A DNA stretch of 64,000 nucleotides from the NCBI GenBank assembly GCA_963777605.1, contig CAVZRV010000027.1, forward strand, positions 32,001 to 96,000. The letters are read 5' to 3'. Source of the stretch: an uncultured Acidobacteriota bacterium (GTDB lineage Bacteria > Acidobacteriota > UBA6911 > RPQK01 > JAPXNP01). The position numbers and the translations under genes are program-made. Of the stretch, positions 19,805 through 48,957 are shown piece after piece. Below the pieces are notes generated by a model that was not told where the DNA came from, searched no databases, and saw only the letters and a program-made list of their open reading frames with translations. Numbering within the stretch: the first letter of the stretch is position 1; the number at the start of each line of letters is the position of its first letter.

Positions 19805-20161
19805 TCAAGCCCCGAGCCCCAGTTTCCCGGCCACATCGTCAAGGCGACGGTCCAGGCTCCAGATCCCCAGGGTGCAAATTAGCGCTGAGGCAAGCAGGTG
19901 CATATCCACCCAGCCCAACCCTTGCCCCATCAACCGCCGACGTTCGATCATTTCGAGCACCTCGGCATCCCCGACCCGCGCTGCTTCGGGCAACGCCGTC
20001 AGAAGATGCAGGATCTCATCCCGATTCTTCAGGTTCCCGCAAGCCAGTTCGCCGATCACAAAGGAATGGACGGCCACCCGCTCTTCATCGAGCAACAAAG
20101 CCAGCTTCGGCAGGCCCGAGCGCAGGTGCTCGACCCAGACCGAGGTATCCACGAGAATCAC
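19805..20161 (-). CDS. vapC: VapC PIN-domain toxin
   Basis: ILVDTSVWVEHLR, VIGELACG, GWVDMHLLAS, WSLDRRL; GTG start at 20161. Confidence 0.9.
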   Translation of the reverse strand: MILVDTSVWVEHLRSGLPKLALLLDEERVAVHSFVIGELACGNLKNRDEILHLLTALPEAARVGDAEVLEMIERRRLMGQGLGWVDMHLLASALICTLGIWSLDRRLDDVAGKLGLGA

Positions 20162-20165
20162 GCCT

Positions 20166-20354
20166 TCAAGATCTCCGTCGTGGGATAGCCTCGAGTCCCG
20201 GTTCGCTCCCGCCAAGCCGTCTCAGTCGCCGCCCGCTCTCCCGGGCAATCAGAGCCTTCAAGCCCTCATGAATGAGCTTCGTCTTCTCTTCTATCCCACT
20301 CAACCGCGCCGCCTCGCTGATCAGTCGATCATCCAGATTCAACGTCGTCCGCAT
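20166..20354 (-). CDS. vapB: VapB antitoxin
   Basis: MRTTLNLDDRLISEA...KTKLIHEGLKALI...LGGS, directly upstream of vapC. Confidence 0.88.
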   Translation of the reverse strand: MRTTLNLDDRLISEAARLSGIEEKTKLIHEGLKALIARESGRRLRRLGGSEPGLEAIPRRRS

Positions 20355-20515
20355 CTGCATCAGTATGCACTCTACATGCAGACTCAGTCAACATGCGCAT
20401 CCCCGGCAAGCCGATCCCCCTCCGCGTCTTGGCGTTGCAATTCGAAGTCTCCAGATTGAAGGTTCAGGTTAGCTGGGCCCCCGGCGGCGCCGGACCATTC
20501 AAAGAGTGAAACTGG

Positions 20516-20576
20516 GTCCGCGAACCCGGGGGCGCGGCTTCGCCTTACCCCCGGCTCTGTGTCCGTGCCATTCCAC
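20516..20576 (+). repeat. dispersed hairpin repeat family B
   Basis: 61 bp identical to 58049-58109, with similarity extending to ~130 bp. Confidence 0.92.
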
Positions 20577-20699
20577 GTTTCAAATGGACCCAGGGTCCAA
20601 GCTTCAGGTGAAGGTTCAAGTCAGCCTGGCCGCCGCGCTCCCCGCGGATCATTCAGAACGTGAAAATGGACCTGGCAGAGCGTGAAAATGGACCTGGCG

Positions 20700-20900
20700 C
20701 AAGGCGCCTTGGTTTCAGCCCAGGGCTTGCCCTGGGTCTGTGGTGGCCGGGCACTTCGATTGCGGCCTGTAAGGTCGCACCCCGGATTCACTTCGTCCGA
20801 AGCGGTGTTCAGCCCCTTCAGGGCTGGATTCTTGATGGGTGGACCGTGAACCCAGGCAAATGCCTGGGCTGGAAACAGGCCCCCTTCAGGGGCCCGCCCG
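20700..20900. repeat. cluster of REP-like palindromes (cccaggg..ccctggg; gccccttcagggc)
   Basis: the same hairpin types recur at 14485-14547, 48131-48225 and 48895-48957. Confidence 0.7.
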
Positions 20901-21111
20901 GCGCCGATCCCGTGATCATCACTCATCCACGTCTGGCACCGGACCAGGAACCAGGATCCAGCCGAGAGCCACGGCTTCTGAGTTCTGCCGATAGCCCGAA
21001 TCTCCGTCCAGACGCGTCCAAATCATCCAGGATTTCCAGTTCATCCAGATTGAAGGTTCAAGCTTAGCCGGGCAATCGGCTTCGGCCACGAGACAAGCAG
21101 AGATGCTTATC

Positions 21112-23632: not shown

Positions 23633-23851
23633 CTACCCGGTCTTCTCCAGAATCAGGTTCTCCGTCGAGAGATTGAAAATGTCACGAAGCGAATAATTCC
23701 TGGCAGCATCCAGTACTTCGAACCCGATGACCAAACCCTGCTCGTCCAGATCAAGGATCACACCGTCCGACACTTCCCTGGATTCAGCAATCTCCTTCTC
23801 CTGAATTCGGATGTAGAGGGCATCGACATCACGATCATATTCGATTCTCAT
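23633..23851 (-). CDS. DUF2283 family putative antitoxin
   Basis: MRIEYDRDVDALYIRI...GVILDLDEQGLVIGFEVLDA. Confidence 0.88.
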   Translation of the reverse strand: MRIEYDRDVDALYIRIQEKEIAESREVSDGVILDLDEQGLVIGFEVLDAARNYSLRDIFNLSTENLILEKTG

Positions 23852-24028
23852 GAAAGATCCTTCCAGACAACCGTGATCACGACTGTCTCCTGATCGGTCT
23901 CCTTATAGGTTACTCTCAGAATGCGTTCACCGAATAACTTTGCTGCATTCTTCCTCCCGAAAGCCGACTCCTCCACGCGACTCGGCCCTTTCAGGACATC
24001 GAGTACTTCCGATTCAGAAACCTGCCGG
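23848..24028 (-). pseudogene. DUF4258 family putative toxin, N-terminally truncated
   Basis: VSESEVLDVLKGP...GRKNA...ILRVTY...VVITVVW overlaps the DUF2283 start; the N-terminus is replaced by repeat DNA. Confidence 0.65.
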
Positions 24029-24048
24029 CCTCCCTGGCCGGCCCTCCC

Positions 24049-24103
24049 CCTCCGCGTCACCGCGGTGATCAGCTTATCGAGTTCGTTTCGAGTAACGGGT
24101 TTC
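24049..24103 (+). repeat. direct repeat, left of abrB-vapC
   Basis: cctccgcgtcaccgcggtga...tcgtttcgagtaacggg, second copy at 24975-25028. Confidence 0.85.
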
Positions 24104-24238
24104 GGGCGCACAACATCCGGGAATCGGGAAAAACACAACAGCCCCGCAACCTGAACCAGAACCGTAGAACTTGGCACGTTGACCACTAAACGTAGAACTT
24201 ATTGATTTTCGGGGTAACATAGTCGCAAGAGGTGTAAC

Positions 24239-24475
24239 ATGGCGACATCCCGGGTAACTGAAAAGGGTCAGGTTGTCATTCCCGCCGAAATCAGGCGTAA
24301 ATACAACATCAAGAAGGGTACCCGCGTCGTGGTTACGGAGACCGAGGGCCGGGCGATCCTGGTCAAGCCGATCCCCGATGACCCGATCGAGGCGTCTAAA
24401 GGCGCACTGAAAGGGAAGATATCCCTGGCAAACGCCCTGATCGAGGATCGACGCGAGGAAGCCGCGCGTGGATGA
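24239..24475 (+). CDS. AbrB/MazE family antitoxin
   Basis: SRVTEKGQVVIPAEIRRKYNIKKG. Confidence 0.92.
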   Translation: MATSRVTEKGQVVIPAEIRRKYNIKKGTRVVVTETEGRAILVKPIPDDPIEASKGALKGKISLANALIEDRREEAARG

Positions 24476-24872
24476 AACCTACGTTCTGGACAGCTACGCT
24501 TTACTGGCTCATCTCGAGGGAGAGGCCGGCGCCGGCCGGGTCGAGTCCATCCTGAGAGCAGCTCAAGAGGGGAAAACAAGACTATTCCTGTCGGTAATCA
24601 ATCTGGACGAGATCTTCCACATCACGCTTCGAGAATTGGGTCACAGAAAAGCCGAAGAGGCCCTTTTCCTCGTCGAGCAGCTTCCGCTGGAAATTGTCGA
24701 TGCCGACCGGGAACTGACTCTCCAAGCCGCGCGGCTCAAAGCCGCCTACCCGGTCGCCTACGCCGACTGTTTCGCCGCGGCACTGGCCAGACGGGAACAG
24801 GCAAAGGTCGTCACCGGCGACCCGGAATTCGACCGTTTCGGCCAGGAAGTCCCCATCGAACGCCTTCCCTGA
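24468..24872 (+). CDS. vapC: VapC PIN-domain toxin
   Basis: YVLDSYALLA, LSVINLDE, YADCFAAALA, VVTGDPEF. Confidence 0.9.
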   Translation: MDETYVLDSYALLAHLEGEAGAGRVESILRAAQEGKTRLFLSVINLDEIFHITLRELGHRKAEEALFLVEQLPLEIVDADRELTLQAARLKAAYPVAYADCFAAALARREQAKVVTGDPEFDRFGQEVPIERLP

Positions 24873-25604: not shown

Positions 25605-26663
25605 TCAAGCACCGAAACCACCTCTTCTCATAAACACTCGCCTCTCGGCACGATGTGTAAACGCGAGAAGCGCCAGGAACAGAACTGGCACGATCACAAT
25701 CGAAGCCAATCCGGCAGAAGAGTACCCGGCGGCTAAAAGCACAGCAAGACCTGACCCAGTCAAAGCCAGCCCACCATAAAGGACCGTAACGAACTGGTGA
25801 GAGTACCCGGCAATCACCAGGCGCTGGTAGAGATGAGACCGGTGGGCTTTGAAAACGTTCTCCCCCCGCAGCACACGCCGACATAACGTGAAGGAAGAAT
25901 CCGCTAAAAACGGCCACAGTAAAAGAGCACTACTGAGAAGAAATACGGGATCCATGACGCCACTTACAATCGTCATGATCGCAAAGGCGAAGCCCAGGAA
26001 GGAACTGCCGACGTCCCCCATGAAGATTCGGGCAGGAGACCAGTTATGCACTAAGAAGCCAACCGATGCCCCCAGAACAAGGGCTCCAAGAACCAACAAG
26101 AAAGCGCTACCGCTGTAAACCCCAATTCCGAGCCACCCCAAGGATGCAGTGACCGACTGTACACCAGCAATGCCATCGATCCCATCCATGAAATTGTAGA
26201 TATTCGTCACTCCCACGATCCAGACGACAGCGACTCCCAATACCAGAAAAGCCACCGACGGATCTGGAACACTGGTTAAGTTCGGTTGATCAAAGATCCG
26301 AAATGCCCAAACCCACCCGACAGCTATACACACTTGAACGACAAGGCGAAGTAACGCGGACAGAGGGCGGACATCATCAATGAAGCCAAGGATGGCAACT
26401 GCAAACGATGACGCGGCAAATGCCAGAACCGATCGCCAACCGATTCCCGGAAAGAACAGTCTCCCTAAGAAAAGGCCGCCTATAGTGACAACAACGATCG
26501 CCGCCCCTCCTCCTCGCGGCGTCGGATTCTGATGCGAACTGCGTTGGTTGGGAACATCCAGAACCTGATTCCTGGCGGCCCAAACAACAAGACGAGCAAC
26601 CAGACCCGCCGAAATGAACCCGGACACGAAGACCACAACGGCGAGAAAAAGACCGGTCCTCAT
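25605..26663 (-). CDS. MraY/WecA (WbpL-like) initiating sugar-phosphate transferase
   Basis: DVPNQRSSHQNPTPRGGG, GFIDD, NFMDGIDG, FMGDVGS, AHRSHLYQRL; ATG at 26663. Confidence 0.9.
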   Translation of the reverse strand: MRTGLFLAVVVFVSGFISAGLVARLVVWAARNQVLDVPNQRSSHQNPTPRGGGAAIVVVTIGGLFLGRLFFPGIGWRSVLAFAASSFAVAILGFIDDVRPLSALLRLVVQVCIAVGWVWAFRIFDQPNLTSVPDPSVAFLVLGVAVVWIVGVTNIYNFMDGIDGIAGVQSVTASLGWLGIGVYSGSAFLLVLGALVLGASVGFLVHNWSPARIFMGDVGSSFLGFAFAIMTIVSGVMDPVFLLSSALLLWPFLADSSFTLCRRVLRGENVFKAHRSHLYQRLVIAGYSHQFVTVLYGGLALTGSGLAVLLAAGYSSAGLASIVIVPVLFLALLAFTHRAERRVFMRRGGFGA

Positions 26664-26689
26664 CGAGTAATTGAATCCTGAAAATGTGA

Positions 26690-27270
26690 GCCGCTCAAAG
26701 CGGTCAAAACGTCGCCGCCTGCGCGGCAACTTGCGCCACCTGAAGGTGGCTACTGATCAAACAGTTTAGGCTGATCCCGACGTCGATCCTCCGCTTCCTG
26801 TTGTTGGATGTACTCACGGATGACGGCCTCTTCGCGGCCCACCGTCGAAACGAAGTACCCACAGGCCCAGAAGTGCTGGCCCACGAAATTCCGCCGCCTC
26901 TCGCTGAAGTTCCGGGCGATGTGGATCGCACTCTTCCCCTTGATGTAACCCACGACCCAGGCCTACCGAGTCTTTCGGCGGAATCGAGATCATCATGTGT
27001 ACGTGATCCGGTCTCACTTTCCTGGTGTTGAGCCAACTGCCGAAACAGCGGACCCAGTTCCCCGCGCAACGTCCCAAAAATCACTTTCCTCCGGTATTTC
27101 GGGATAAACAGCACGTGATACTTACACTCCCACTTCGTGTGCGTTAGACTTCTGTAGTTCGTCATTGAACTCCCTTTCGTGCAGCTTTGGTCGGCTCACG
27201 AAGGGGAGTTCTCATTCAGATTTCCGCAAATGTCAAACTTCGGCTGCCTCCCCGGCAGAGCCGGGGGGAC
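26690..27270 (-). mobile_element. tnpA: IS200/IS605 family element with degenerate tnpA
   Basis: HTKWECKYHV.FIPKYRRK, PDHVHM, YIKGKS, FW..GYFVSTVG, EYIQQQ across frames; subterminal hairpins ccccggcagagccgggg and gccacctgaaggtggc. Confidence 0.88.
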
Positions 27271-27292
27271 TCTCGATTTGGTCTAGAATCCG

Positions 27293-28291
27293 TCAGTCGG
27301 CCGAGGCCATCTGCCGGACAGTCTCCTGCCAGCCCGTTCGAAGGTCGAACCGAGGTCTAAAACCCAAGCGAGCAGCGATCTTCCGCCCACTAACGGCAAC
27401 ATCTTCAACCATCTTATCTACCGTATTTACGGTTATCGGAGAATCCCGGTGAAGGTGGGCGAAGACAAACTCACACGATTGCGCCAATGATCGGGCCAAC
27501 GGGACCGGGATATGAAACCTCGGAGGACTCTTCCCTAGGGCCGCGGAGATTTCACCAACGATTTCGCTGAAGGTATGAATCGAACCGTCGGTAACATTAA
27601 ATGTTTCACCGGATGCAAGCGGATGCTCGGCCGCAAGAATGGCAGCAGAGGATACATCTTCCACATGAACGAGCGTTCGCCGATTCCTTCCTTTCCCTAT
27701 CGGAACGAACCAACCTCGCTTCAGAGCGTTTACCAGGCGAGGATAGTTGCCCTTCATTCGAGGCCCATAGACCGCCCCAAGCCTCAAGATCACGGCATTG
27801 CTGTCCTGCCGCACCAACTCCTCAGCCCTCGCTTTGGTTTCTGCGTACAGCGAGTCCGGAGAAACGGAAGAAGTTTCATCCCAAACGAGCCCGGCTCGGC
27901 TTGGACCGTAGACATTGACTGTACTGAAAAAAACAAAACGGCTAACCCCTGCCCGCCTCGCAGCGTCGAGCACAATTTCCGTTCCATGAACATTTACTAA
28001 CTCGTACTCCGAACGCATCTCTTCGGTCTGTCGATTAATGTGCAGCTTTGCCGCCAAATGGAAAACCACGTCCGCCCCAGAGGCAGCCCGGTCAACCGCA
28101 CCCGGCTCGGTAATATCAGCAAGCATCGGTGTCACTTTTTCGCTGTACGGGAGACCAACCCCCGATCGATCCAGTGCCCGTACAGGATAGCCACGAAGTA
28201 ACAACTGTCGAATCAGCCCCGGCCCAATTGCTCCAGAAGAACCCGTAACAAGTGCGACAGGCCGACTACCTTGGTTCTGGCGTGCCGACAT
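27293..28291 (-). CDS. NAD-dependent epimerase/dehydratase
   Basis: TGSSGAIG, FHLAA, YAETK, VYGP, VHVED. Confidence 0.85.
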   Translation of the reverse strand: MSARQNQGSRPVALVTGSSGAIGPGLIRQLLLRGYPVRALDRSGVGLPYSEKVTPMLADITEPGAVDRAASGADVVFHLAAKLHINRQTEEMRSEYELVNVHGTEIVLDAARRAGVSRFVFFSTVNVYGPSRAGLVWDETSSVSPDSLYAETKARAEELVRQDSNAVILRLGAVYGPRMKGNYPRLVNALKRGWFVPIGKGRNRRTLVHVEDVSSAAILAAEHPLASGETFNVTDGSIHTFSEIVGEISAALGKSPPRFHIPVPLARSLAQSCEFVFAHLHRDSPITVNTVDKMVEDVAVSGRKIAARLGFRPRFDLRTGWQETVRQMASAD

Positions 28292-29543
28292 CGGACTCTC
28301 GCTCCGTCAATTCCCGAATCAAAGCATCATACTGGAGGGCAACCGTACGCTTCGAATGGCGCTCAACGACGTACCGTCGACCACTTTCCCCCTTTGCAAG
28401 GCCTTCCTTCCGGTTCTCATAAGCGTGTCGGACAGCTTCAGACATCGCCTTTGCATCGTCAGGGGGAACGGTCCAGCCACAATCGGCCTCCTTCACGACC
28501 CACGTCAACTCCGAGTCCGTGTCCGCCGACACCAGAACCGGGCGCCCAGCAGCCATTATTGTGTAAATCTTCGATGGAAATGTCCCCTGCGCAGTACCTT
28601 GCTTAAGTGGAACAACACACAAGTCGCACGCCGCATAGATATCTGGAACGACCGACGACGGTTGGTATGGCAACATGAGCAGGTTTTCTAAGCCCTTCCT
28701 CGTAACTTCACTCTTAAGCCAATCTCGCCGCGACCCATCGCCAATCAAGACAAATTTAAGTTCAGATAAATCTCGCAATCCTTCCGCTGCACCCAAGATG
28801 CTCTCAAAACTTTGAGTCAATCCTAAATTACCCGCGTACAGAACAACAAAGCTGTCGTCAAATCCATGGTGACTTGAGAACGCATTCTTTCGATCAAGAG
28901 GCCTGATGAATTCCGTATCGACAAAATTCGGGATGACTCGAAGTTTCGATTCTGGAACTCCCTTCGAAATAAGCCTTTTTCTGAAGAATTCCGAAATAAC
29001 AACGACCGTCCTTGCCCTACGGTAGACGAACATCTCTAATTTAAAAAGAATCCGAATTAGAAATCGATTCCGGATAACGCCCAGACTAACTGCAATATCC
29101 GGGTAAATTTCTTGAACATTGTAGATGAAGCCACCACCGCCCCTCATTGAAAGCAGCCAGGCCACGAGGCCAATACTCAGGGGAGGAGAAGGCGCAAAGA
29201 TAATGTCCCATCGCGGAGCCTTGATAAGACTGGCGCAAAGACTCAAGAAATGAAAACTTGCATAGTCGAACAATCGACCTATGATTCGACTACCCTTTGC
29301 CTTTACACGAGCGTGGTACACGGTTATTCCATCGCAGTTGCTTTCATCGAGAAGCCCCGCCCAACAACGTTTGAGCGGTTGGACCCTCCTGGCGTCGACA
29401 TCACAGTTATAATGTGGCGTTGTTGTCGCCACAGTCAACTTATGCCCCAATCCCTGCAACTCAAGCCCCAATTGAGTAAGCAGAACGGATGTAGAAACTG
29501 CGTCAGGTGAAAAGACGAGTGTCGTAAAGAGAATCTCAGCCAC
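28266..29543 (-). CDS. glycosyltransferase family 4 (WcaI/WbuB-like)
   Basis: SPPL, YNVQEIYPD, IPNFVD, YAGNLG, FPSKIYTIMAAGRPV. Confidence 0.9.
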   Translation of the reverse strand: MAEILFTTLVFSPDAVSTSVLLTQLGLELQGLGHKLTVATTTPHYNCDVDARRVQPLKRCWAGLLDESNCDGITVYHARVKAKGSRIIGRLFDYASFHFLSLCASLIKAPRWDIIFAPSPPLSIGLVAWLLSMRGGGGFIYNVQEIYPDIAVSLGVIRNRFLIRILFKLEMFVYRRARTVVVISEFFRKRLISKGVPESKLRVIPNFVDTEFIRPLDRKNAFSSHHGFDDSFVVLYAGNLGLTQSFESILGAAEGLRDLSELKFVLIGDGSRRDWLKSEVTRKGLENLLMLPYQPSSVVPDIYAACDLCVVPLKQGTAQGTFPSKIYTIMAAGRPVLVSADTDSELTWVVKEADCGWTVPPDDAKAMSEAVRHAYENRKEGLAKGESGRRYVVERHSKRTVALQYDALIRELTERESDVGTPEPR

Positions 29544-29624
29544 TTACCACCAAAATCCCTGAGCTCTTATGCCCAAAGCTCCGTGGGCACAAATACAACC
29601 ATTCGTATACCGGCCCCTGCGACA

Positions 29625-30542
29625 TCAGTTGTCTGTGGCCCTACGATCTGAACGATCACTTCCAAACTTCCCAAGGCCGTAGTCCAATGTAGTTGAATAC
29701 CTCGCCTCATAAACACAAGCATCCACGTAGAATCGGAACCAAAATCCATGAAGAACATGATAGATCAAACCTGGTGTTCCGTCGAGGAAACCGCCGCGCA
29801 CAACATACCGAAGCAGGAAGTACAGAAGGCTGCGGATGAACATGGGGCTGCGTGCGTAAATCGAAGTTCGCAACCACCTCCGCCTCTCGATCGCGGAACC
29901 AGTTATGTTCGCTTGCACCTGTCCAACCGCGGAACCAAGGGTCTTTGACCGCAATTCAGCTGCTTCCATTTGTGCCCACCGATTGTGGCGAGCGGTCCAC
30001 GAGAACAGTGATGAGGCCGTCTCTTCTATGAGATCACTTTCTAGCCTGTTTGTCCCACCGATAACCAGAAAATGCTGATCGTATCTTCGGCTCTCACACC
30101 TGCCACAACTTCTCCTAAAAACTCGGCAATGATATGTCGGGTAGATTCCTCCATGCTTAATGTAACTTCCCAGAAACCTTATCTTTCGACGTACCAGGAA
30201 GCCATTGACTCTTTCAAATTGACCCTCACTAAATGCGTTTCTGATCTGTTCAGTCAGATCAGGACTCACCCGTTCATCGGCATCGATGTGAAAAACCCAA
30301 TCATGTGAAAGTGGAAGGTTGTCTTGTGCCCAGTTCCGCTGAGACGCGTAGTCGAGAAAAGGGTGTTCAAAGATATTCCTAGTATATTGTGAAGCGATCT
30401 CTAAAGTTCTGTCGGAGCTCCCTGAGTCAACAATGAAAATTTCGTCAGCCCATCCCTCGATTGTGTCCAGGCAAGACTTGATATTCTTCTCTTCATCTTT
30501 GGTAAGCACAACAGCAGACAAAGGAATTCTACAATTCTTCAT
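29625..30542 (-). CDS. glycosyltransferase family 2
   Basis: VVLTKDEE, VDSGSSDRT, QRNWA, HIDADE, GFLDG. Confidence 0.9.
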   Translation of the reverse strand: MKNCRIPLSAVVLTKDEEKNIKSCLDTIEGWADEIFIVDSGSSDRTLEIASQYTRNIFEHPFLDYASQRNWAQDNLPLSHDWVFHIDADERVSPDLTEQIRNAFSEGQFERVNGFLVRRKIRFLGSYIKHGGIYPTYHCRVFRRSCGRCESRRYDQHFLVIGGTNRLESDLIEETASSLFSWTARHNRWAQMEAAELRSKTLGSAVGQVQANITGSAIERRRWLRTSIYARSPMFIRSLLYFLLRYVVRGGFLDGTPGLIYHVLHGFWFRFYVDACVYEARYSTTLDYGLGKFGSDRSDRRATDN

Positions 30543-30551
30543 CTTAGAAAA

Positions 30552-31223
30552 CTATCCGACAATATCTGTGGACAAGGTTTGCGGAGCAGACTTCTTGAGT
30601 GCTACTATAAATTGGCACATCCAAACGGGCCAATACCGACCTATTCCTTTCCAGAAGACAGGCTCAAAACCAGCGGTCCATAAACACCGTTCTAGAGAGG
30701 CCCGAGTAAAGAACCTGATATGAGACAAATATGGGCTGTAATGTGTCTCAAAAGAAGTCAGCGCAATTAGGACATTCTTTACAAACCCATGATACGGAAC
30801 CGTTAATATCAGCGCCCCTCCAGGATCCAGTAACCGATTAAACTCTACAAGTGTGATGTGGACATCCAGGAGATGCTCCAAAACTTCTGTACACCAAATG
30901 GCACCGAACCTCCGATGACGTGAAAATGGTAGTGAAGTTTGCAGCGATGCCACCGCAAATCTACCGTGGGGAAAGCTCTTCCGTGCTTTGCCGATCGCAA
31001 ACGGCGAGAGATCGATGCTCGTCACCCTGTGGCCAAAATCGGCCATGAATTTACTGAACTCCCCACTTCCACAACCCGCATCCAGAATCGAGCACCGCTC
31101 TCCCAGATTACCCAAGATAGATTTCAGAGTGGCCTTTCGCTCCGCGACCAGAAGCCCTCCCTCGGCCGGAGATCCTCCCTCTCGCTGCCAATACCGGTCG
31201 TAGAACTCTCTACTTTCCTTCAC
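30552..31223 (-). CDS. class I SAM-dependent methyltransferase
   Basis: ILDAGCGSG, EVLEHL, LTVP, HIRFFT; GTG start overlaps the upstream stop. Confidence 0.88.
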   Translation of the reverse strand: MKESREFYDRYWQREGGSPAEGGLLVAERKATLKSILGNLGERCSILDAGCGSGEFSKFMADFGHRVTSIDLSPFAIGKARKSFPHGRFAVASLQTSLPFSRHRRFGAIWCTEVLEHLLDVHITLVEFNRLLDPGGALILTVPYHGFVKNVLIALTSFETHYSPYLSHIRFFTRASLERCLWTAGFEPVFWKGIGRYWPVWMCQFIVALKKSAPQTLSTDIVG

Positions 31224-35268: not shown

Positions 35269-35326
35269 AACCTCTTTGACTCACACCTTCAAAACACTCC
35301 CAAAAACGTCACTATTCCTCTGAGAT

Positions 35327-37583: not shown

Positions 37584-37806
37584 ATCTAAAATAGACAATC
37601 GGCATCGCATTTGGTCAACAACGGCACGTTGACCGTTCAATCTTGCACAGGCAGGAAGATGAAGAGTCCTGCTAATAAATTTACTTCATCCCGCATTTAC
37701 TGTAAATATTAGATTTCATGTTGTCATAAAATAATACGTTATAAATCTAGTTCTAGAATTTTAATCTACGTAGTTTTATAACGCAATGCACATCATATAC
37801 GTTGAA

Positions 37807-39015: not shown

Positions 39016-39128
39016 AATATACCCCTACCTCGAGTGGCCTAGAGTCACTCTTTCAACCCAACCTGAATCACTCCTAAACGCCCCCGATTCCCACGATAGC
39101 GGACTCAGCCAACCGAGTTGAACGATAA

Positions 39129-40514
39129 TTACGCTGCGGTCACTCTGTCAGCCCTGTAGCGGAAGTTATGGTAGACCCAGTACGCACCCGGTGCCTGGAG
39201 GAGCAATGAAACGCCAAGATAGCCAAGCCCCAACCCGAGACCTCCCCAAAACCTCGCCCCAAAATAGGACACAACAACAACAAGAATCGCATTCACGAAC
39301 AGAAACCCTGCTAATGGCTCCCGCTTGAACGCACGAAAGTACACACACAACCCTTGCACCATTACGCCTATCACCCCACCAAGCAGCACAGCCACAGCTC
39401 CTCCCGGAGACAACAACCTTCCCACAAAGCCAAGGTGCAGCCATGCTCCGACGACAAGGCCCACCGAAACAGCGATACTGCCAGCCGACGCCACAATTGC
39501 GGCCTGTCCCAACGCAGCACCAAACTCCCTGTTCAATCGCTCCACTTCGCCCCGGGCGACAAACATCCCGAACCGGGGAACCTTCGTACTCAACCAGTTC
39601 GCGGCCACTGCACTCAGGACGCTTAGAATCGAGATTGTCATTCCAACCTTACCCGCCAATACTGGTCCGGAGGCGAGGAATGCCAGCGGAGTGAGAGCGT
39701 AACTCACAAGGTATCCACTGGCAAATGACACAGCTACCCGCCACTGCATCGGCCACACCTCTTCTTTCCAGTTCATCCCCGATTCCGCCGAAGCCACAAA
39801 ACTGCCCTTGATGAGCGGCCAATGTGTTCTTCTCAGGTACAGACTGCCCCAAATCACGCTACTCGCGGAAGCAACCACCAGCGCCCATAAGCCAGCGCCC
39901 AATGCGATCGCTGCACAGATCAACGTCACATAAACAATCCGCTGTCCCAATCGCTGTCGCCAGTAAGAAACCACCTCGTCGACTGCCAGTAAAGTCTGAT
40001 ACAAGGGTACCAAAAGGAAATTCAAGCAACTGACTATCACTATGCACAACCAGGGCCACAACCAATAAATACCGTCGCTACCCGCTCTCGAAAAAAAAGC
40101 AACACCACCTGCGCCAACTATTCCAAGATACAGGACTCCGGCGGACGCATACCACCGTACGGCCGATTGCACCAATGATCGGAATCGTGCAAGCGCAATC
40201 CGATCTCCCGTCAGCCCATCGTTGGATCCATAATTCAACAAAGCCCTCTCGTGACTGCCAAACTGCACAATCACTTGGCCAACTCCCAACTCAAATAACG
40301 ACTGCATCGAGACAAAAGAGGCAAACGTATAGTAATATCCCTGCGCCGCTGGCGAAAAATGAAGTGCGACCATTATCGCGACAAGTGGACCGCTCGCAAT
40401 CGCTACGCAGTTAGTTGCTAACGCTACACCAATACTCTTCTCAATCCCAATCCATAAAGAGATCCTCCGAACAGCTTCCGCAACTAAATTCCCGATTCCA
40501 TTTAAACTTATCAC
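39129..40514 (-). CDS. wzx: Wzx flippase
   Basis: FSPAAQGYYYTF, FELG, PMQWR, multiple TM segments. Confidence 0.8.
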   Translation of the reverse strand: MISLNGIGNLVAEAVRRISLWIGIEKSIGVALATNCVAIASGPLVAIMVALHFSPAAQGYYYTFASFVSMQSLFELGVGQVIVQFGSHERALLNYGSNDGLTGDRIALARFRSLVQSAVRWYASAGVLYLGIVGAGGVAFFSRAGSDGIYWLWPWLCIVIVSCLNFLLVPLYQTLLAVDEVVSYWRQRLGQRIVYVTLICAAIALGAGLWALVVASASSVIWGSLYLRRTHWPLIKGSFVASAESGMNWKEEVWPMQWRVAVSFASGYLVSYALTPLAFLASGPVLAGKVGMTISILSVLSAVAANWLSTKVPRFGMFVARGEVERLNREFGAALGQAAIVASAGSIAVSVGLVVGAWLHLGFVGRLLSPGGAVAVLLGGVIGVMVQGLCVYFRAFKREPLAGFLFVNAILVVVVSYFGARFWGGLGLGLGYLGVSLLLQAPGAYWVYHNFRYRADRVTAA

Positions 40515-40544
40515 GTATACTAGCTATTCTAGAAAAAGCATTCT

Positions 40545-41465
40545 TTAACCGCCCAAGATTGGGTAGCTCAGGCCAGACTCGGCAACGACCGCATCAATAT
40601 CTCTCACATTCTCTCTAGATAGGGTTCCGCTCCAAAAGAATGGGAAGGATCGGTCCTCGACTATTTCAGCCCATCTATAAAGGCCATGCAGAGTCCTGTG
40701 AGTCATAAGAGACGGAGTGAATATGTAAGACGGATGAATATCCTGATTGACACCAACATAATTCAGGAGTTTTCTCGTTTCATCGAATGGTGATTGATAG
40801 AAATCTTCGTACTTAACACAGCACACATCCTCAGAACGCAACCTCTCCACGGCAATAGAGTGCGTCGCCGCCCACATTAATGCTATCTTTTCAAGTTTTG
40901 AATAGCGATTGTTTCTAATATTATCTCTGAACTTCTTAAATCTTTCACTAAACTCCTCAGAGAATATAACTCTCTCAAGGAATGCGCCCCAATGGAAATC
41001 CCAACCGAACTCTTCCCAAAAACGGCTTCTTCGCACTATAGATGCGATTACTGCCCGAGGATCTCGAACTACAAATACGACTCGGCAGGAAAGATCATTA
41101 ATAAACAGACCAATCGGCATATTAAGCCTAATTTCTTTAAATCCAATAATTTTGCAATTATCATAAACAAGATCTGAAAATTCCTCAGTAACTTGATCAA
41201 TACTGCCGACCAGATGATTTCTAAGAAGCCATTTACTTCGGACTGCTCCCGAAACCGCCTTGTCGACATGGTTTCGAATGACCAAGGCCTGCTCCTTATT
41301 GACATTCGGACGGTAGACAAGATCTCGAGATTCCGGGAAAACTGCCGGGTGCAAAGGTTCGAATAGAATCAGGCCCCCAGCGGCCTTGGACAATATGTCG
41401 GAAATCCATGTCGTTCCGGATCTCCCAAACCCCAGGATTGCGAGTCTCTTCTTTGTCTCGCCCAT
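40545..41465 (-). CDS. sulfotransferase family protein
   Basis: 5'-PSB motif GRSGTTW, FEP, 3'-PB motif VRDPRAVIAS, KYED. Confidence 0.88.
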   Translation of the reverse strand: MGETKKRLAILGFGRSGTTWISDILSKAAGGLILFEPLHPAVFPESRDLVYRPNVNKEQALVIRNHVDKAVSGAVRSKWLLRNHLVGSIDQVTEEFSDLVYDNCKIIGFKEIRLNMPIGLFINDLSCRVVFVVRDPRAVIASIVRRSRFWEEFGWDFHWGAFLERVIFSEEFSERFKKFRDNIRNNRYSKLEKIALMWAATHSIAVERLRSEDVCCVKYEDFYQSPFDETRKLLNYVGVNQDIHPSYIFTPSLMTHRTLHGLYRWAEIVEDRSFPFFWSGTLSRENVRDIDAVVAESGLSYPILGG

Positions 41466-41639: not shown

Positions 41640-42569
41640 TCACGGGTACGTTTTGGCTATCCCGTCTTGAAGCGAGAATCTCGATTTCCATCCGATCTCT
41701 GAAATTCGGTCAGCGCGGAAATTTCTTGCTTTTACGCCTACCGGTCCTTCTACGTGGCGGATGTTGACCTTCTTTCCAGCAACGGAGGCTACCGTTTCAA
41801 CCAGTTCATCTACCGAAACGTATTCCCGGCGGCCGATGTTTACGCCGTTCTCCAAGTTCGACTGCATGAGCAGGCGGATTCCGTCGAGCATGTCTTCGAT
41901 GTAGGTGTAGGCTCGCATTGCGGTGCCGTCGCCCCAGACTTCTATGGTTCCGCCGTCTTCAATCTCGGCTACCTTGCGGCACATGGCGGCGGGAGCTTTC
42001 TCCCGACCGCCTCGCCAGGTCCCTTCGGGTCCGTAACAGTTCTGGAAACGGGCGATCCGGATTGCCATGTCGTAGCGCCGGCCGTAGGCCATGGCGGTCC
42101 GCTCGGCATAGAACTTCTCCCAGCCGTATTCGTTATGGGGCAGAGCCGGGTAGGCCTCGTCCTCGGACAGTTCGGGTTCGTCCTTGGTCATGTCGCGATA
42201 GACACAGGCGGAGGAAGAGAAGAAGTATCGTGGAACGCCGGCTCGGGCGCTGGCATCGATCATGTGAATGTTGATCAGGGCGCTGTTGCGCATGATTTCG
42301 CACTCGGCGGAATCGATGAATCCCATTCCGCCCATGTCGGCCGCCAGTTGATAGACCTCGTCGAAGAATCCTCCGTTCGGCCCGTGGACCGCCTGTTTGC
42401 AGTTCTCAGGCTCCCGCAGGTCCAGAACACAAAAATCGTCGGCTGCAGTGGGAGAAAACTCGGGATGTTTCAGGTCGACGCCTCTTACCCAGTAGCCTTC
42501 ATTGACGAGGCGCTTGACCAGGTGGGAACCGATGAATCCACCTGCGCCACAAACCAGTGCTCGTTTCAC
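41640..42569 (-). CDS. GDP-mannose 3,5-epimerase-like SDR
   Basis: GAGGFIG, LAADMGGMGFI, SSSACVY, YGWEK, GGREKAPAAMCRK. Confidence 0.88.
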   Translation of the reverse strand: MKRALVCGAGGFIGSHLVKRLVNEGYWVRGVDLKHPEFSPTAADDFCVLDLREPENCKQAVHGPNGGFFDEVYQLAADMGGMGFIDSAECEIMRNSALINIHMIDASARAGVPRYFFSSSACVYRDMTKDEPELSEDEAYPALPHNEYGWEKFYAERTAMAYGRRYDMAIRIARFQNCYGPEGTWRGGREKAPAAMCRKVAEIEDGGTIEVWGDGTAMRAYTYIEDMLDGIRLLMQSNLENGVNIGRREYVSVDELVETVASVAGKKVNIRHVEGPVGVKARNFRADRISEIGWKSRFSLQDGIAKTYP

Positions 42570-42808
42570 AACATTCTCCTAATGACGCTCGGACCGGATC
42601 TTCCACTGATGGCCAAATATCGTGAGAAATCCAGATCCTGTGTAATCAGAACCATCCCTTTGGCCCACGCCCAGTCGAGGATCTCTTCGTCGCTAGCAGA
42701 GGCGGGCAAAACTGCGGACACTCTCAGCACCTGCCAACCGGCATCTCTCAGGGAGTCTACCGTCGCCGGCGAAATATTCATGTCCGCGAGAAATCTAAGG
42801 GGACCCAC
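42566..42808 (-). pseudogene. DUF5615 PIN-like toxin, C-terminally truncated
   Basis: RFLADMNIS, SDEEIL, LITQDLDF, PSVI, then a stop overlapping the epimerase start. Confidence 0.75.
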
Positions 42809-42810
42809 GT

Positions 42811-43041
42811 TCAAGCGGCCGGAGGGGAAACGATCTGTTCCGACGCCAGCCAAGCCGCATACTGTATTGCCTGGCGGACATCCTCTTCTTCGAGTTCCGG
42901 ATAGGCGGCAACAACGTCTTGAGCAGTCCGACCTTGTGCGAGCATCTTAAGGACAACGCTCACAGTGATTCTCATGCCCCGGATGGTAGCTTGTCCCAAG
43001 CATACATGAGGGTTGATTGTGATGCGCTCCAATCCCTTCAT
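42811..43041 (-). CDS. DUF433 family antitoxin
   Basis: RITINPHVCLGQATIRGMRITV...YPELEEEDVRQAIQYA. Confidence 0.92.
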   Translation of the reverse strand: MKGLERITINPHVCLGQATIRGMRITVSVVLKMLAQGRTAQDVVAAYPELEEEDVRQAIQYAAWLASEQIVSPPAA

Positions 43042-43126: not shown

Positions 43127-43549
43127 CTACTTTGGGTTCATCCTCCCGACAATTGCACGGGTGAACGCCCGGAGGTCGTTGAGGTGCTCCTGAATGATGT
43201 TGTAAACCTGGTGATGATCGACTTCCCAGTAGACGTGGATCAGCATATTCCGAAAGCGCGCCATTCTCTGGAGCTGCTCTCCAAGATCAGGCGTCACCCA
43301 GCCTTCTTCCGCCAGGAGTTTGAAGCAGGCGGCATAGCCTTCCGGGACCTTTCTCACGGTTTTTGCACTGACGTGGTAGCAAAGAGCAATCGCGGCTTCT
43401 ATTGCCACCAACAGTCGATAGCAGGCGATATCCTGCAGATCGTTGTTCCCGAGGAAGACCTCTTCGGAAAGGCCGGCGATCTTCTCCAGCCTCTGAACGG
43501 ATGCCTCAATTTCCTGACACCGCGAGCGAATCAAGTCCGGATTCAGCAT
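43127..43549 (-). CDS. HEPN (DUF86, HepT-like) RNase toxin
   Basis: AIEAAI...FRNMLIHVY (RX4H motif). Confidence 0.9.
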   Translation of the reverse strand: MLNPDLIRSRCQEIEASVQRLEKIAGLSEEVFLGNNDLQDIACYRLLVAIEAAIALCYHVSAKTVRKVPEGYAACFKLLAEEGWVTPDLGEQLQRMARFRNMLIHVYWEVDHHQVYNIIQEHLNDLRAFTRAIVGRMNPK

Positions 43550-43932
43550 TATTCCCCGAAAGCCTCCACTGTTGCACGACGCAAGAGAGGTTCCACGTCG
43601 AGATAGGTTCTCAGAGTCTCTTCAAACACCCGATCGTGGACTTCTTCGTCACGCACTTCGATCAAGCGCCCCTTCAGGACATGGAAGAGGAACGTGACGG
43701 GGGCATCATTCAAGATTCGCAGGTCGACGGGGACATTCAAATCATCCAGACGGGAGTGAAGATGATTGAGAAGATCACCGCAGTCCTTGCAGGATGATTC
43801 CCCCAGCCAGATTCCGACATCGATGTCACGGTTGGAATCCCGTTCCAGAAACGATCCATACAGATAAGCGAATGCAATTCCCGTCGTCTCTTGAATGGCA
43901 GCCTGGATTCGGTTGAAGATCTCGTCGTTCAT
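43549..43932 (-). CDS. minimal nucleotidyltransferase (MNT) antitoxin
   Basis: AYLYGSF...DIDVG...VDLRILNDAP. Confidence 0.9.
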   Translation of the reverse strand: MNDEIFNRIQAAIQETTGIAFAYLYGSFLERDSNRDIDVGIWLGESSCKDCGDLLNHLHSRLDDLNVPVDLRILNDAPVTFLFHVLKGRLIEVRDEEVHDRVFEETLRTYLDVEPLLRRATVEAFGE

Positions 43933-44025
43933 CAAGGTTCTTCAGAATTTCTAATCGCTTGTCCTCTCCATGGTCGCAAGCTGGAAGCTCGCGCTACGGG
44001 GGAGAAAGACTCAACGAGCATCTAC

Positions 44026-44244
44026 CTACTCAAATGCTTCTTTCGGGAGGCCGGACTGGCGAACAATGGAAAGCAACGTACCTTTGCGCAACTCACTGTG
44101 CTGCGGAACTGGCACAGTCACCGTGGAACCGGCCAACTGAAGTTGCATCACCACGTGACTTCCGCGGCGCCTGACTTCGCGAAAGCCGTGTTTTTCCAAA
44201 ATAGCGCAGGCCTCTTTTCCCGAAAGAGTTCGGAGCTTACCCAA
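44026..44244 (-). CDS. hicA: HicA toxin
   Basis: LSGKEA..IL..HGF..VRRRGSH...VPVP.H.EL..GTL.SI; TTG start. Confidence 0.92.
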   Translation of the reverse strand: MGKLRTLSGKEACAILEKHGFREVRRRGSHVVMQLQLAGSTVTVPVPQHSELRKGTLLSIVRQSGLPKEAFE

Positions 44245-44458
44245 CGGCTACCTGCAAGCTTGTCACGTAGACTTCTTCGTGGAGCCTTTGCCGTACCTCC
44301 TCGGCCGAGGCGGTTTCGAAGAACAATTCTACGGCCTCCCGGAGATTTTCTCGGGCCTCGTCGATCGTTTGTCCCTGGCTGGCGACATCCACCTCGGGGC
44401 AAAGTGCGACATAGCCGTCTCCTTCGCGTTCGATCACCGCTGTCAATCGTTTTGTCAT
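44237..44458 (-). CDS. hicB: HicB antitoxin (short type)
   Basis: AVIEREGDGYVALCPEVDVASQGQTIDEARENLREAVELF. Confidence 0.92.
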   Translation of the reverse strand: MTKRLTAVIEREGDGYVALCPEVDVASQGQTIDEARENLREAVELFFETASAEEVRQRLHEEVYVTSLQVAVG

Positions 44459-47800: not shown

Positions 47801-47985
47801 ACCTCGAGCAGGCAGAACAGGGTGCTGCCGCCGCTGCCGACCCGGCAACCGTCAGGGTCGGGGACAACCAGGACGTTACAGATCCCTGCCAGAAAGCCCA
47901 GTTCCTGCCGCAGGGAGAGTTGCTCGCGGTAGGCGTCGGCCTGGCGGTCACTCGATGCCGTGATGATCAGGTAATCCCAGGACAT
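44821..47985 (-). CDS. fkp: bifunctional L-fucokinase/GDP-L-fucose pyrophosphorylase (Fkp-like)
   Basis: RVGSGGST, HAGGDARRLP, HGVY, FLQKPS, HFGT; GHMP domain PARLDLGGGWTDTPP, IPSGSGLGTSS, TTGGGWQDQ, GAGGGG. Confidence 0.9.
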   Translation of the reverse strand: MSWDYLIITASSDRQADAYREQLSLRQELGFLAGICNVLVVPDPDGCRVGSGGSTLFCLLEVLNRELEEDSDRKGDRGAWLEVLESLRILIVHAGGDARRLPPYGPCGKSFVPLPVESARAVPVTVFDRQLPIYLGIPEPQTGRGQVIITSGDVLLDFDPESLEPTGPGLTGLATYADPALAANHGVYSRDPEGRVRRFLQKPSVEDQVRLGAVTRFGKSLLDIGIFSFDAETALRLLELIGPRPSESGELLPRSELTAAILDKGLDFYREICCAMGSETDLAAYREEARRSVSRFGDADLEALFAHLGEVPFSCQVVNRCGFFHFGTLRQLVTSGSELVSREQGFSSFDHCLSIQNITEEGDIDGSRSWVEGCRVRADLQLGGDNVLVGLDLDRPIEIPQGACFDVTPGTSKTGQLCWFVRCYGMDDTFQQSFADGIVFCGLPMDDWMVSMDVDPVSIWDAGVPPEERTLWTARLFPAIVEPASWDSWVWMVDPAAASTAEKAVWREAQRFSCAEIAELAEQESFHERRLANRAWELRSMIPSLFRLDSGFSARELALVLSRFDAGDRKAFVAEILNEAFRQFGETSGAWKLERLELSRIFHSLGSAMQLLPPQVAAETSTGVERLLDDETRTWLESFGVDFGAAAESGDDWTVTLQNLAFTNLSQTILLGDRAKLDPPRISIRSDEIIWGRAPARLDLGGGWTDTPPYALENGGCVLNVAVNLNGQPPIHAYARTCSEPHIKLTSIDHGVSVTIRELEELHQYRTDGFGLAKAALVLSGFSTETGTWPRGVTTLEQILEHFGGGIELTTLAAIPSGSGLGTSSVMAAVLVAVLARLTGREPTQRDLFNRVLQLEQELTTGGGWQDQIGGCVGGTKLITTRPGLVPDPMIHFVPSDLIEPTKNGGQTLLLYTGIRRLAKNILHEVVGRYLDRNRETLATYRNLQALPHQLADALSRRDMPGFGKLIGESWELNKELDPNSTTPEIESLLEQLHPHIQGAKLLGAGGGGFLAMICSSSESARHARRILSNNKINDRKRFFDYSISQDGLELSVC

Positions 47986-48007
47986 TTGTGAATTGGGGTT
48001 TGGGGTT

Positions 48008-48225
48008 TTCAGTTAGCACTTCGCACTTCGGTTTCGTCGTTCGACTTCGTCATTCGCCGTTCGTAGTTTCGAGTTTCGGGTTTCGGGTTTCGAGCGATTG
48101 GCCGTCTTCCGATTCACCCCCGAGGATCGCGCCCTTACAGGGCGCCAGCTTCGTCAGGGCGCTCGGTTTCCCAGGGTCGCGCTGCGCTTCACCCTGGGCT
48201 GAAATGATCCGGCCCTTTCAGGGCC
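48008..48225. repeat. TTCG ladder plus REP-hairpin composite (left direct repeat of hicBA-2)
   Basis: matches 48806-48957. Confidence 0.85.
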
Positions 48226-48325
48226 GCAAATCGGTTTCGTTGACGGGCATTGCTCACGTACTGAAATGCGTGCCCCCGGCCGACCATGTGGGGAATGTGA
48301 CCATGTGCCGCAGCGGGATTTCTTT

Positions 48326-48550
48326 TCAAAGAAGGGAGAGAAACTGTTCCACGGTTAAGCCGGCTTCGCGGATCAGCGCTCTCAGGGTTCCTTTTGAGAT
48401 CTCTCGATGGTCGGGAACGACGAGGCGCCGATGGGGCGGTGTGGTCTGCCGAAGAATCATGTGGCTGCCGCGCTGGCGATCCAGTTGATAAGAAAGCTTC
48501 GAGAACGCCCGTACAACTTCCCGACCGGAAACAACGGGAAGTCGCGTCAG
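48326..48550 (-). CDS. hicA: HicA toxin with CTG start (absent from the ORF track)
   Basis: hand translation: (M)TRLPVVSGREVVRAFSKLSYQLDRQRGSHMILRQTTPPHRRLVVPDHREISKGTLRALIREAGLTVEQFLSLL*; the CTG overlaps the hicB TGA. Confidence 0.85.
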   Translation of the reverse strand: MTRLPVVSGREVVRAFSKLSYQLDRQRGSHMILRQTTPPHRRLVVPDHREISKGTLRALIREAGLTVEQFLSLL

Positions 48551-48759
48551 ATGCTCACCTCAACCACTTCTTCCGAGATCGAGGGAGGAACGGGTTCATC
48601 GTGTTCTCTTAGACTTTCGAGGTACAGTTCGATGGCCTCCCGAATGTTGACCAACGCTTCCTCTCTCGTCGTTCCCTGAGAGATACATCCGGGCAGAGAA
48701 GGAGCCTCCGCAACATAGATCCCGTCTTCATCCACTTCGATCAATACCCTGTATTTCAT
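48547..48759 (-). CDS. hicB: HicB antitoxin (short type)
   Basis: MKYRVLIEVDEDGIYVAEAPSLPGCISQGTTREEALVNIREAIELY. Confidence 0.92.
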   Translation of the reverse strand: MKYRVLIEVDEDGIYVAEAPSLPGCISQGTTREEALVNIREAIELYLESLREHDEPVPPSISEEVVEVSI

Positions 48760-48805
48760 AGGCTTCAATGGGTTACGAGTGAAATGATAGCAGGGTTTGA
48801 GTTTC

Positions 48806-48957
48806 TTCAGTTCGCACTTCGCACGTCGGTTTCGACCTTCGAGTTCGGCGTTCGGCTTCGTCGTTCGAAGTTTCGGATATCGGGTTTCGAGCAATCGGTT
48901 TCCCAGGATCGCGCTTCGCTTGGCCCTGGGCTGAGATGATCCGGTCCTTTCAGGGCC
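48806..48957. repeat. TTCG ladder plus REP-hairpin composite (right direct repeat of hicBA-2)
   Basis: matches 48008-48225. Confidence 0.85.

Follow-up and report, generated by a model that had tools for sequence, protein, structure and literature searches.

Toxin-antitoxin operons clustered at the joints of an Acidobacteriota polysaccharide locus, probably old and reshuffled by ordinary recombination

The window that we discuss is a stretch of 64,000 nucleotides from the genome of an uncultured Acidobacteriota bacterium (positions 32001-96000 of the 605-kb contig C27; the genome, G000, has 6.73 Mb in 53 contigs). It contains a polysaccharide locus, and seven toxin-antitoxin (TA) modules stand among the genes of that locus. 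It seems probable to us, with a good deal of doubt left over, that the modules are selfish TA operons clustered at the joints of a flexible Wzx/Wzy locus in a family of Acidobacteriota, and that this cluster is old, has been inherited vertically, and is reshuffled slowly. An earlier note on the same DNA had proposed something else: integron-like traffic of cassettes, without an integrase, that uses short repeats as recombination or targeting sites. Most of what that note described is there, while the mechanism that it proposed is not supported.

Pfam supports both genes in six of the seven modules (Table 1). The remaining one, module 2, is supported for its DUF2283 gene alone, as the partner ORF (open reading frame) matches no Pfam family at E<=0.01. 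The note had called this partner DUF4258, and we dropped the label because the DUF4258 model has three matches elsewhere in the genome and none to this ORF, even at E<=1. By eye only, we take it to resemble the C-terminal part of DUF4258-type proteins, and it is possibly an N-terminally truncated toxin. The nucleotidyltransferase (MNT) and HepT pair is a predicted type VII TA module: HepT scores 113.9 bits with the NCBIfam model HepT_toxin (cut-off 60), MntA scores 47.4 bits, under its cut-off of 60, and the translations contain an Rx4HxY-like stretch and a GS...DxD stretch, which we take to be the HepT and MntA motifs. Some details of the gene starts are unusual. The frame of hicA2 (48326-48559) is open for 77 codons, and none of the start codons ATG, GTG, and TTG occurs in it ahead of the HicA domain; there is a CTG that overlaps the stop codon of hicB2, and the ortholog of hicA2 in a related genome (G014, below) is also short at its N-terminus. 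The PIN ORF of module 1 likely starts with GTG near 20161, and there is a promoter-like site at 20391-20362 (in scans for promoters and terminators, the numbers of sites were no higher than in shuffled sequence). The stop of module 4 overlaps the start of the downstream epimerase gene (41640-42569).

The modules are not related to each other, and only HicA1 and HicA2 (34%) and HicB1 and HicB2 (42%) can be aligned, so they are separate acquisitions rather than local copies. Six of the seven lie on the minus strand with the sugar genes, as the note had seen, and only the abrB-vapC module (module 3) is opposed to the operon. They stand between functional blocks, around the GDP-sugar genes and on both sides of a block of low-GC glycosyltransferase genes: modules 2 and 3 are just to the left of this block, and modules 4-6 are to its right, just past the epimerase gene.

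The concentration of TA genes in this part of the genome is high, and the comparison of density inside and outside the locus, which the note had suggested, came out in its favor. In six-frame Pfam searches of the whole genome with nine TA families, we found 20 matches (PIN 8, HicA 5, HepT 2, DUF433 2, one of them broken, DUF2283 1, ParE 1, PIN_3 1, MazF 0, and Gp49 0). Seven of the 20 lie within the 29.2-kb region of the modules, which is 0.43% of the genome (expected 0.087, Poisson P ~7e-12), and this share is inflated to the extent that five of the nine families were picked because they are present in the region. Adding the three DUF4258 matches (7 of 23) changes little. The second-best 30-kb window of the genome, on contig C29, has just three matches. 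The area on C29 is an ordinary flexible region with a reverse transcriptase, an insertion sequence (IS), a fragment of a restriction enzyme, and split genes.

A cluster of PIN matches led to the orthologous locus in another genus of the family (g3), in genome G014 (contig C5, 1100-1176 kb). A GT2 glycosyltransferase, UDP-glucose dehydrogenase (83% amino acid identity), an epimerase (76%), and a Wzy_C protein (65%) are collinear between the window and G014. As the note had expected, the content of modules varies. Five of the seven modules have orthologs in the G014 locus, with 56-88% amino acid identity; one is a remnant, and one is absent. Specifically, the orthologs are AbrB and VapC3 (68% and 71%), DUF433 and DUF5615 (86% and 60%, followed by a 5' piece of the same epimerase gene, as in the window), MNT (56%, with HepT cut to ~35-40 amino acids and present in two copies), HicB1 and HicA1 (88% and 80%), and HicB2 and HicA2 (84% and 67%). 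VapB1 survives in G014 only as a remnant of 29 amino acids, beside Wzy_C as in the window, and the DUF2283 module has no counterpart in the G014 locus by tblastn. G014 also has about a dozen more: a VapB-PIN pair, a Phd-PIN pair, lone PINs, and three nucleotidyltransferase-HEPN pairs were found by Pfam. One part of the locus, zone B, holds ~12 modules or remnants in 16 kb, and zone A holds seven plus a remnant. At least 8 of the 35 PIN matches of G014 are in this locus. The shared modules are arranged in a different order in G014 than in the window.

The shared modules are not recent traffic. They are as old as their sugar-gene neighbors and have been kept functional, because dS (synonymous divergence) is similar and saturated in both and dN/dS, the ratio of nonsynonymous to synonymous divergence, is low. 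Between G000 and G014, dN/dS was 0.03-0.18 in six of the eight TA genes (0.18 and 0.10 for abrB-vapC3, and 0.03 and 0.12 for hicBA1), 0.06 in epimerase3, and 0.15 in the C-terminal part of WbpM; with dS at 1.1-2.2, these values are rough, and DUF433 and MNT gave no dS, while DUF5615 was left out. That five modules are intact or nearly so across genera speaks against their having no effect at all.

How the modules are rearranged can be seen best between G014 and G002, which belong to one genus and are 92-97% identical in the flanks. In G002, hicB1 is at another position and hicA1 is gone. We assessed three of four junctions. The first is at a lone heptad-like unit, 49 nt before hicB1; in the second, the coding DNA of MNT and that of the epimerase share a microhomology of 7 nt; and the third runs from one edge of a spacer unit into the MNT gene. 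The note had asked for breakpoints inside repeats; no long repeat is shared by these junctions. They point to illegitimate and homologous recombination, not to site-specific exchange. Many modules of G014 and G002 are truncated. Zone B of G014 is full of segmental duplications (84-99% identity), and between its modules the epimerase gene recurs as end fragments and as a copy with an internal deletion. The G014 locus also holds fragments of gmd and wbpM alleles like those of G000 (79-90%) beside intact, divergent alleles (50-78% to the window), which are the signature of allele replacement in a polysaccharide locus.

Some cassettes of G014 are separated by a composite spacer, which consists of ~130 conserved nucleotides (with a nearly invariant core of ~60 nt) and a heptad array. 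This spacer is confined to the TA array of genus g3, where copies separate cassettes and also immediately precede the epimerase start. For a 182-nt piece of it, all five G014 copies are inside the array, and the piece is also on contigs C158 and C117 of G002, which are from the same array; three other G002 contigs have weaker and shorter matches. It is absent from G000 and G010 and has no Rfam match. (More generally, Rfam gave no match at gathering score in the window, L178, or L179, and none at E<=0.1 in L179:1-12000.)

Turning to the repeats of the window itself, we found no repeat family that is common to all seven modules. Direct repeats bracket two of them, abrB-vapC3 (z 20) and hicBA2 (z 37), and these are the two that the note had described as enclosed. 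For the remaining five, flanking repeats in direct or inverted orientation did not exceed shuffled controls, and inverted arms were found for none of the seven (z -0.8 to 2.4). Because of these three results, we do not see an attC-like site at the end of every cassette. The 58-nt repeat around module 3 has no further copy in the genome (blastn-short). In DNA alignments of G000 and G014, homology does not reach beyond the coding sequences of the modules, which might suggest discrete cassettes, but at a coding identity of 70-77% spacers could not be aligned anyway, so these ends do not define the ends of cassettes.

The most conspicuous of the short repeats is a heptad element of ~75 nt, in which alignment shows degenerate 7-nt units in a fixed order. 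There are 34 copies in the genome at E<1e-4 (nhmmer), five of them in the window, where the distance to the following start codon (of hicB1, fucokinase, hicB2, or gmd) is 7-40 nt. Two of these four genes, fucokinase and gmd, are not TA genes. Heptanucleotide arrays (at least three copies, by TRF) are found 240 times in the genome, one unit type 45 times, and they are enriched here: 13 in the window versus 2.3 expected, and 5 in the region of the modules versus 1.05 expected. They also occur around a PIN module of genome G010. We infer that the heptad repeats are general intergenic elements of leader type in these genomes and are at most short patches of homology, rather than the recombination or targeting sites of the note.

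The flanks of hicBA2 hold a duplication. Copy B is contiguous and has a heptad element, a 63-nt hairpin block, and a remnant of the 3' end of hicB, which translates to a HicB-like C-terminus ending in a stop codon. Copy A has the same three blocks, interrupted at two points, by 61 nt and by a 303-nt stretch with hicA2; the blocks are 82%, 90%, and 83% identical between the copies (bl2seq). We read these flanks as a putative tandem pair of hicBA cassettes, of which the upstream copy has decayed.

Public reads offer a little information beyond the assemblies. Only two runs contained 7-8% of the sampled words, and the contigs are of low depth. In X1, low-depth and near-identical pieces bridge the joint between DUF433 and HepT and the joint between hicB1 and its heptad element, which means that the arrangement is present beyond this assembly, or else in the sample from which it came. 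In X2 (from a rhizosphere), pieces of HepT-MNT (43116-43997) are 98-99.7% identical to the window, while the listed pieces of fucokinase (45155-45928) differ by ~10%, at a depth of 2-4. This contrast may reflect an exchange of modules between lineages or a shared mobile module, or else several relatives in the sample. A 280-nt skip across hicA1 in X2 was not counted, as it was seen in one contig with a side of 31 nt.

In the account that we prefer, the modules would have entered singly over a long time, which we base on their being unrelated to each other. They would persist by addiction or "post-recombinational killing," in which loss of a module kills or arrests the cell; a stabilization of the locus of this type would be plausible. 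They would move and decay by ordinary homologous, unequal, and illegitimate recombination, as in the swapping of polysaccharide alleles. A by-product would be that the sugar genes next to them become costly to delete or replace. Their common orientation would reflect selection that removes insertions disruptive to a long operon through which an UpxY-type factor carries transcription.

Several points weigh against this account. Any module that works should show purifying selection, whether or not it acts by addiction, and the dN/dS values on which we rely are rough, with two of eight TA genes contributing none. Some modules look impaired: hicA2 is without a canonical start, the DUF2283 partner is without a family, and HepT is truncated in G014. 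The array-confined 182-nt repeat is not explained beyond segmental duplication. TA genes in the locus are shown for only three genomes of two genera; among 15 other genomes of the family, close orthologs of HicB1 (72-88% amino acid identity) are present in three (G014, G002, and G006), and the DUF433 ortholog is present in one (G014, 86%; the other matches in the family are at 34-51%). Finally, decay of sugar genes is unsure because the split genes described below may be assembly errors.

It is also conceivable that the array is a defense island, in which the RNase toxins (PIN, HicA, and HepT) act by abortive infection and are inherited together with a locus that likely makes a phage receptor. 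TA families of the PIN, HicA, and HepT kinds have been reported to act against phages. The array is under purifying selection in two genera, and its genes share the orientation of the glycan genes and are packed closely among them, as one would expect of such an island. But the defense models of PADLOC matched none of 15 proteins, and we recognized no restriction, CRISPR, or Abi genes in a Pfam scan of the window. So the coupling to phage defense that the note had raised found no backing in these scans, and we consider a defense island unlikely.

Another view is that the modules are neutral junk: the joints of an often-exchanged polysaccharide island might tolerate TA genes, IS remnants, miniature inverted-repeat transposable elements (MITEs), and a GxxExxY gene without any effect. 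The same locus does contain three transposase remnants, a MITE-like repeat, a GxxExxY cassette, and gene fragments, and, together with the truncated modules of G014 and G002, this lends the view some credit. Also, the locus does not keep one position: beside secA in G014 and G002, the UpxY-type gene is conserved (87% amino acid identity), and no polysaccharide genes follow there. On the other hand, the IS elements have decayed while most of the TA genes have not, dN/dS is low across genera, and the other TA-bearing flexible area, on C29, has fewer than half as many matches. We think that junk alone is a rather poor bet. We would say about the same of a different reading, in which the modules are no lodgers: the array would be conserved as a functional part of the glycan operon, and its modules would be transcribed by read-through within an UpxY-controlled transcript; this seems doubtful to us.

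Least of all do we believe in integron-like traffic, in which an enzyme encoded elsewhere cuts and inserts TA cassettes at short repeats; variable content, permuted order, two bracketed modules, a spacer repeat peculiar to the G014 and G002 array, homology that stops at coding ends, and the (shallow) X2 contrast are what it would lead one to expect, but it is very improbable given that nothing is common to the seven modules, that heptads are spread over the genome and precede fucokinase and gmd, that shared modules are as diverged as their neighbors, that the junctions lie at microhomologies, two of the three inside genes, and that the two defining features we tested, an adjacent IntI and an attC-like site per cassette, are both missing. 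It may still apply to the spacer repeat of the G014 type. The note was right that no integrase is visible: Phage_integrase (PF00589, the tyrosine recombinases) matches 27 places in the genome and none on contig C27, and no integrase appeared in the Pfam scan of the window.

Chromosomal integrons and superintegrons, such as those of Vibrio, are the most obvious known systems to compare. They contain many unrelated, co-oriented TA operons, whose proposed role is to prevent the loss of neighboring DNA. The array that we describe is similar in that unrelated co-oriented TA operons are in one array with content that differs between relatives. It differs in that there is no IntI on the contig and no common attC-like element, and in that the modules are interleaved with a working biosynthetic operon, are old, and have rearrangement ends at microhomologies. 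Capsular polysaccharide loci of Bacteroides are headed by UpxY, and here too an UpxY-family NusG paralog heads a long co-directional polysaccharide locus; unlike in Bacteroides, the tie is not conserved, as the paralog of G014 and G002 shows. Intergenic heptanucleotide repeats are known as STRR (short tandemly repeated repetitive sequences) in heterocystous cyanobacteria. Heptamers between genes also appear in reports on Xanthomonas and Nostoc (PMC4692102) and on Beggiatoaceae, which have TAACTGA repeats (PMC4679880). The repeats of our genomes resemble these published repeats in being degenerate 7-nt tandem units that are intergenic, often just upstream of genes, and found genome-wide, but part of them form a conserved 75-nt element with a fixed unit order.

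For the proposed effect on neighboring genes, the closest precedent is MvpAT, a module of the VapBC family on the Shigella virulence plasmid. Experiments show that it protects adjacent DNA locally by post-recombinational killing (PMC5629016). In both cases a TA module beside a costly surface or virulence block would hinder adjacent deletion. MvpAT is a single module on a plasmid and was studied by experiment; here we have a chromosome with 7 to ~19 modules, and we infer the same mechanism. As for the locus, flexible (replacement) genomic islands for the synthesis of O-chains and polysaccharides have been described (PMC11898729). Our locus has the same form, with conserved sugar-nucleotide genes flanking a low-GC block of glycosyltransferase, Wzx, and Wzy genes, and with replaced alleles that leave remnants. 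TA clusters in flexible regions and superintegrons are thus known. In titles, the beginnings of abstracts, and a few passages of text, we found no description of TA arrays inside polysaccharide loci or operons and no report of a dense, genus-spanning array interleaved with a polysaccharide operon.

The host is a soil or sediment bacterium, and there is no genome of the same genus among the 40 relatives that we compared. The closest named relative of its fucokinase, at 63% identity, is from a metagenome-assembled genome of an uncultured Acidobacteriota bacterium, and the best metagenome contig is at 53%. The polysaccharide locus extends from ~9 kb to 54.9 kb of the window, with nearly all genes on the minus strand (Pfam scan); between 54860 and ~12000, the only exceptions are a few inserts. 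Its sugar-nucleotide genes are gmd, a bifunctional fucokinase/GDP-fucose pyrophosphorylase, epimerases, and UDP-glucose dehydrogenase. There are also a WbpM/CapD-like gene, a WecA-like initiating transferase, and glycosyl-, methyl-, and sulfotransferases. For polymerization and export, it has a Wzy-like polymerase (TIGR04370, 52.5 bits, cut-off 40), a Wzx-like ORF (57.1 bits with a Wzx-like model, far under its cut-off of 300), and two Wzy_C proteins. The UpxY-type gene at its head is the third and weakest of three NusG matches in the genome, and antitermination by its product is only predicted. By its profile of GC3 (GC content at third codon positions), the locus is a mosaic: GC3 is 0.44-0.56 in the block at 25.6-41.5 kb versus 0.68-0.85 in the flanking sugar-nucleotide genes, and the TA genes are intermediate (0.56-0.73). 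All three transposase genes inside the locus, which the note does not mention, are decayed.

Other genomes have parts of this neighborhood. G010 has a syntenic stretch with gmd, NTP_transf_5, PEP-CTERM, epimerase, and fucokinase genes, in which gmd is followed by a PIN ORF and fucokinase by a HEPN (PF05168) ORF; these two ORFs are TA-type genes of other families at corresponding joints. The fucokinase of G004 is in an unrelated context without TA genes. Across phyla, the 14 TA proteins of the window had matches in only 2 of 160 fucokinase loci (2.48 Mb; tblastn, which is insensitive and missed the HEPN of L001). As far as such a search reaches, it shows that these particular modules do not travel with fucokinase.

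The GxxExxY gene, which the note had mentioned as nearby, is confirmed (it is a PDDEXK_3 gene by Pfam). It is opposite in strand and lies between an epimerase gene and Wzy_C. The score of its inverted arms has a z of 9.6 (flank-against-flank alignment with shuffled controls). Its protein has no tblastn match in the G014 locus, where the corresponding site has three consecutive ORFs of 86-94 amino acids without a Pfam family.

Several genes of the window appear to be broken. The WbpM-like gene occupies two overlapping frames, against a single ORF of 809 amino acids in G014; one flippase gene is split in two, of a UDP-GlcNAc 2-epimerase only the C-terminal third is there, and a DUF5916 gene is in two ORFs. 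(The coordinates of these split or truncated genes are 21112-23344, 9210-9915, 25083-25583, and 4269-6931.) In G014, wecB is split as well. The split genes could be real pseudogenes or could be due to indel errors in the assembly.

We made some further observations about the repeats. The heptad element is also found on contigs C7, C10, C31, C41, C42, and others of G000. Some pairs form inverted arms (for example, C10:396029/396056), and the element is often a few dozen bases before a start codon, on the strand that gives CGAA-type units in the mRNA. We considered it as a general leader and dropped the idea, as no more than about a third of the 34 copies are followed, within 150 nt and in the matching direction, by the start of an ORF of at least 130 amino acids. 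The longest heptanucleotide array of the window is a perfect 14-copy array (14157-14256), upstream of or inside the N-terminal part of the GT2 ORF. The leader just before the start codon of Wzy_C (19648-19804) contains two heptad runs that form inverted arms ~100 nt apart, and it recurs, with the ATG included, beyond the end of vapC3 on the other strand (24879-24915). The MITE-like repeat is on many contigs and is clustered on C24 and at C7:1120-1148 kb.

Table 1. Positions of the TA modules, repeats, and other features (window coordinates unless a genome or locus is named)
Feature	Position	Strand	Support or remark
vapBC, module 1	19805..20360	-	VapB 20166-20360 (VapB_antitoxin 4.4e-16); PIN toxin ORF 19805-20215 (PIN 7.8e-08)
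DUF2283 gene and upstream partner ORF, module 2	23633..24186	-	DUF2283 23633-23851 (4.7e-19); partner 23848-24186; 4-nt overlap
abrB-vapC, module 3	24239..24872	+	AbrB-MazE 24239-24475 (MazE_antitoxin 5.9e-13); PIN 24468-24872 (4.1e-18)
DUF433 / DUF5615 PIN-like, module 4	42566..43041	-	DUF433 42811-43041 (1.9e-22); DUF5615 42566-42853 (2.5e-16)
MntA-like nucleotidyltransferase / HepT RNase	43127..43935	-	MNT 43549-43935 (Polbeta 6.2e-13); HepT 43127-43549 (HepT-like 1.2e-30)
hicBA module 1	44026..44458	-	HicB-like 44237-44458 (weak UPF0150 match); HicA 44026-44244 (4e-17)
hicBA module 2	48326..48759	-	HicB 48547-48759 (HicB_lk_antitox 4.7e-12); HicA domain 48356-48526 (1.1e-16)
58-nt direct repeat around inverted abrB-vapC3	24049-24106 and 24975-25031		83% identity; heptad-like leader sequence
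Two heptad elements upstream of hicB1	44498-44574, 44606-44681	+	nhmmer E 2e-15, 4e-18
Heptad elements at hicBA2 flanks	48009-48086, 48807-48883		
Heptad element upstream of gmd start	54131..54202	+	nhmmer E 5e-15; ORF starts 35 nt downstream
Duplicated flank of hicBA2	48008..49010		Copy B 48806-49010; copy A 48008-48580
Hairpin-rich MITE-like repeat between vapB1 and wbpM-like gene	20440..20960		44 and 64 blastn-short matches for two test pieces, mostly 90-100% identical
GxxExxY (PDDEXK_3) gene with inverted arms	17676..18235	+	Gene 17781-18206; 36-nt inverted word-repeat arms 17676-17711, 18199-18235; TIGR04256 126.6 bits
Wzy_C	18193-19647		Pfam
Low-GC variable block (glycosyltransferases, methyltransferase, sulfotransferase, Wzy-like polymerase, Wzx-like flippase, three transposase remnants)	25605..41465	-	
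Glycos_transf_4	25605-26729		Pfam
IS200-like transposase remnant (IS200/Y1-type)	26704-27165		Pfam
IS4-like transposase remnant	32592-33292		Pfam
IS630-like transposase remnant	36372-37374		Pfam
NusG paralog, UpxY family, head of locus	54360..54860	-	Pfam NusG 2.6e-22; NCBIfam antiterm_UpxY NF033644 124.6 bits, cut-off 100
Allele fragments of wbpM and gmd in G014	G014:C5:1114990-1115305 and 1174900-1175140		
Composite spacer	L179:3539-3781, 7358-7743, 8616-8806, 9389-9616, 1538-1602 (G014:C5:1161.5-1169.6 kb); L180, L181 (G002)		

Polysaccharide loci are among the regions that bacteria exchange or lose most often, and TA genes are known to hinder the loss of adjoining DNA. In this family, there are seven modules in the locus of one genus and ~19 modules or remnants in another, with orthologs under purifying selection. 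The pattern looks like that of cassettes, with variable content, permuted order, and flanking repeats, and it can arise without an integron-like machine. If the array were a working partner of the glycan operon, then silencing, deleting, or replacing the operon (for example, under pressure from phages) would stop the supply of antitoxins and free several RNases. That would be a multi-toxin lock on the type of surface polysaccharide, kept across genera, which would punish the loss of the receptor. Either way, these bacteria offer a natural test case of whether chromosomal TA genes fix the type of surface glycan or merely persist selfishly.

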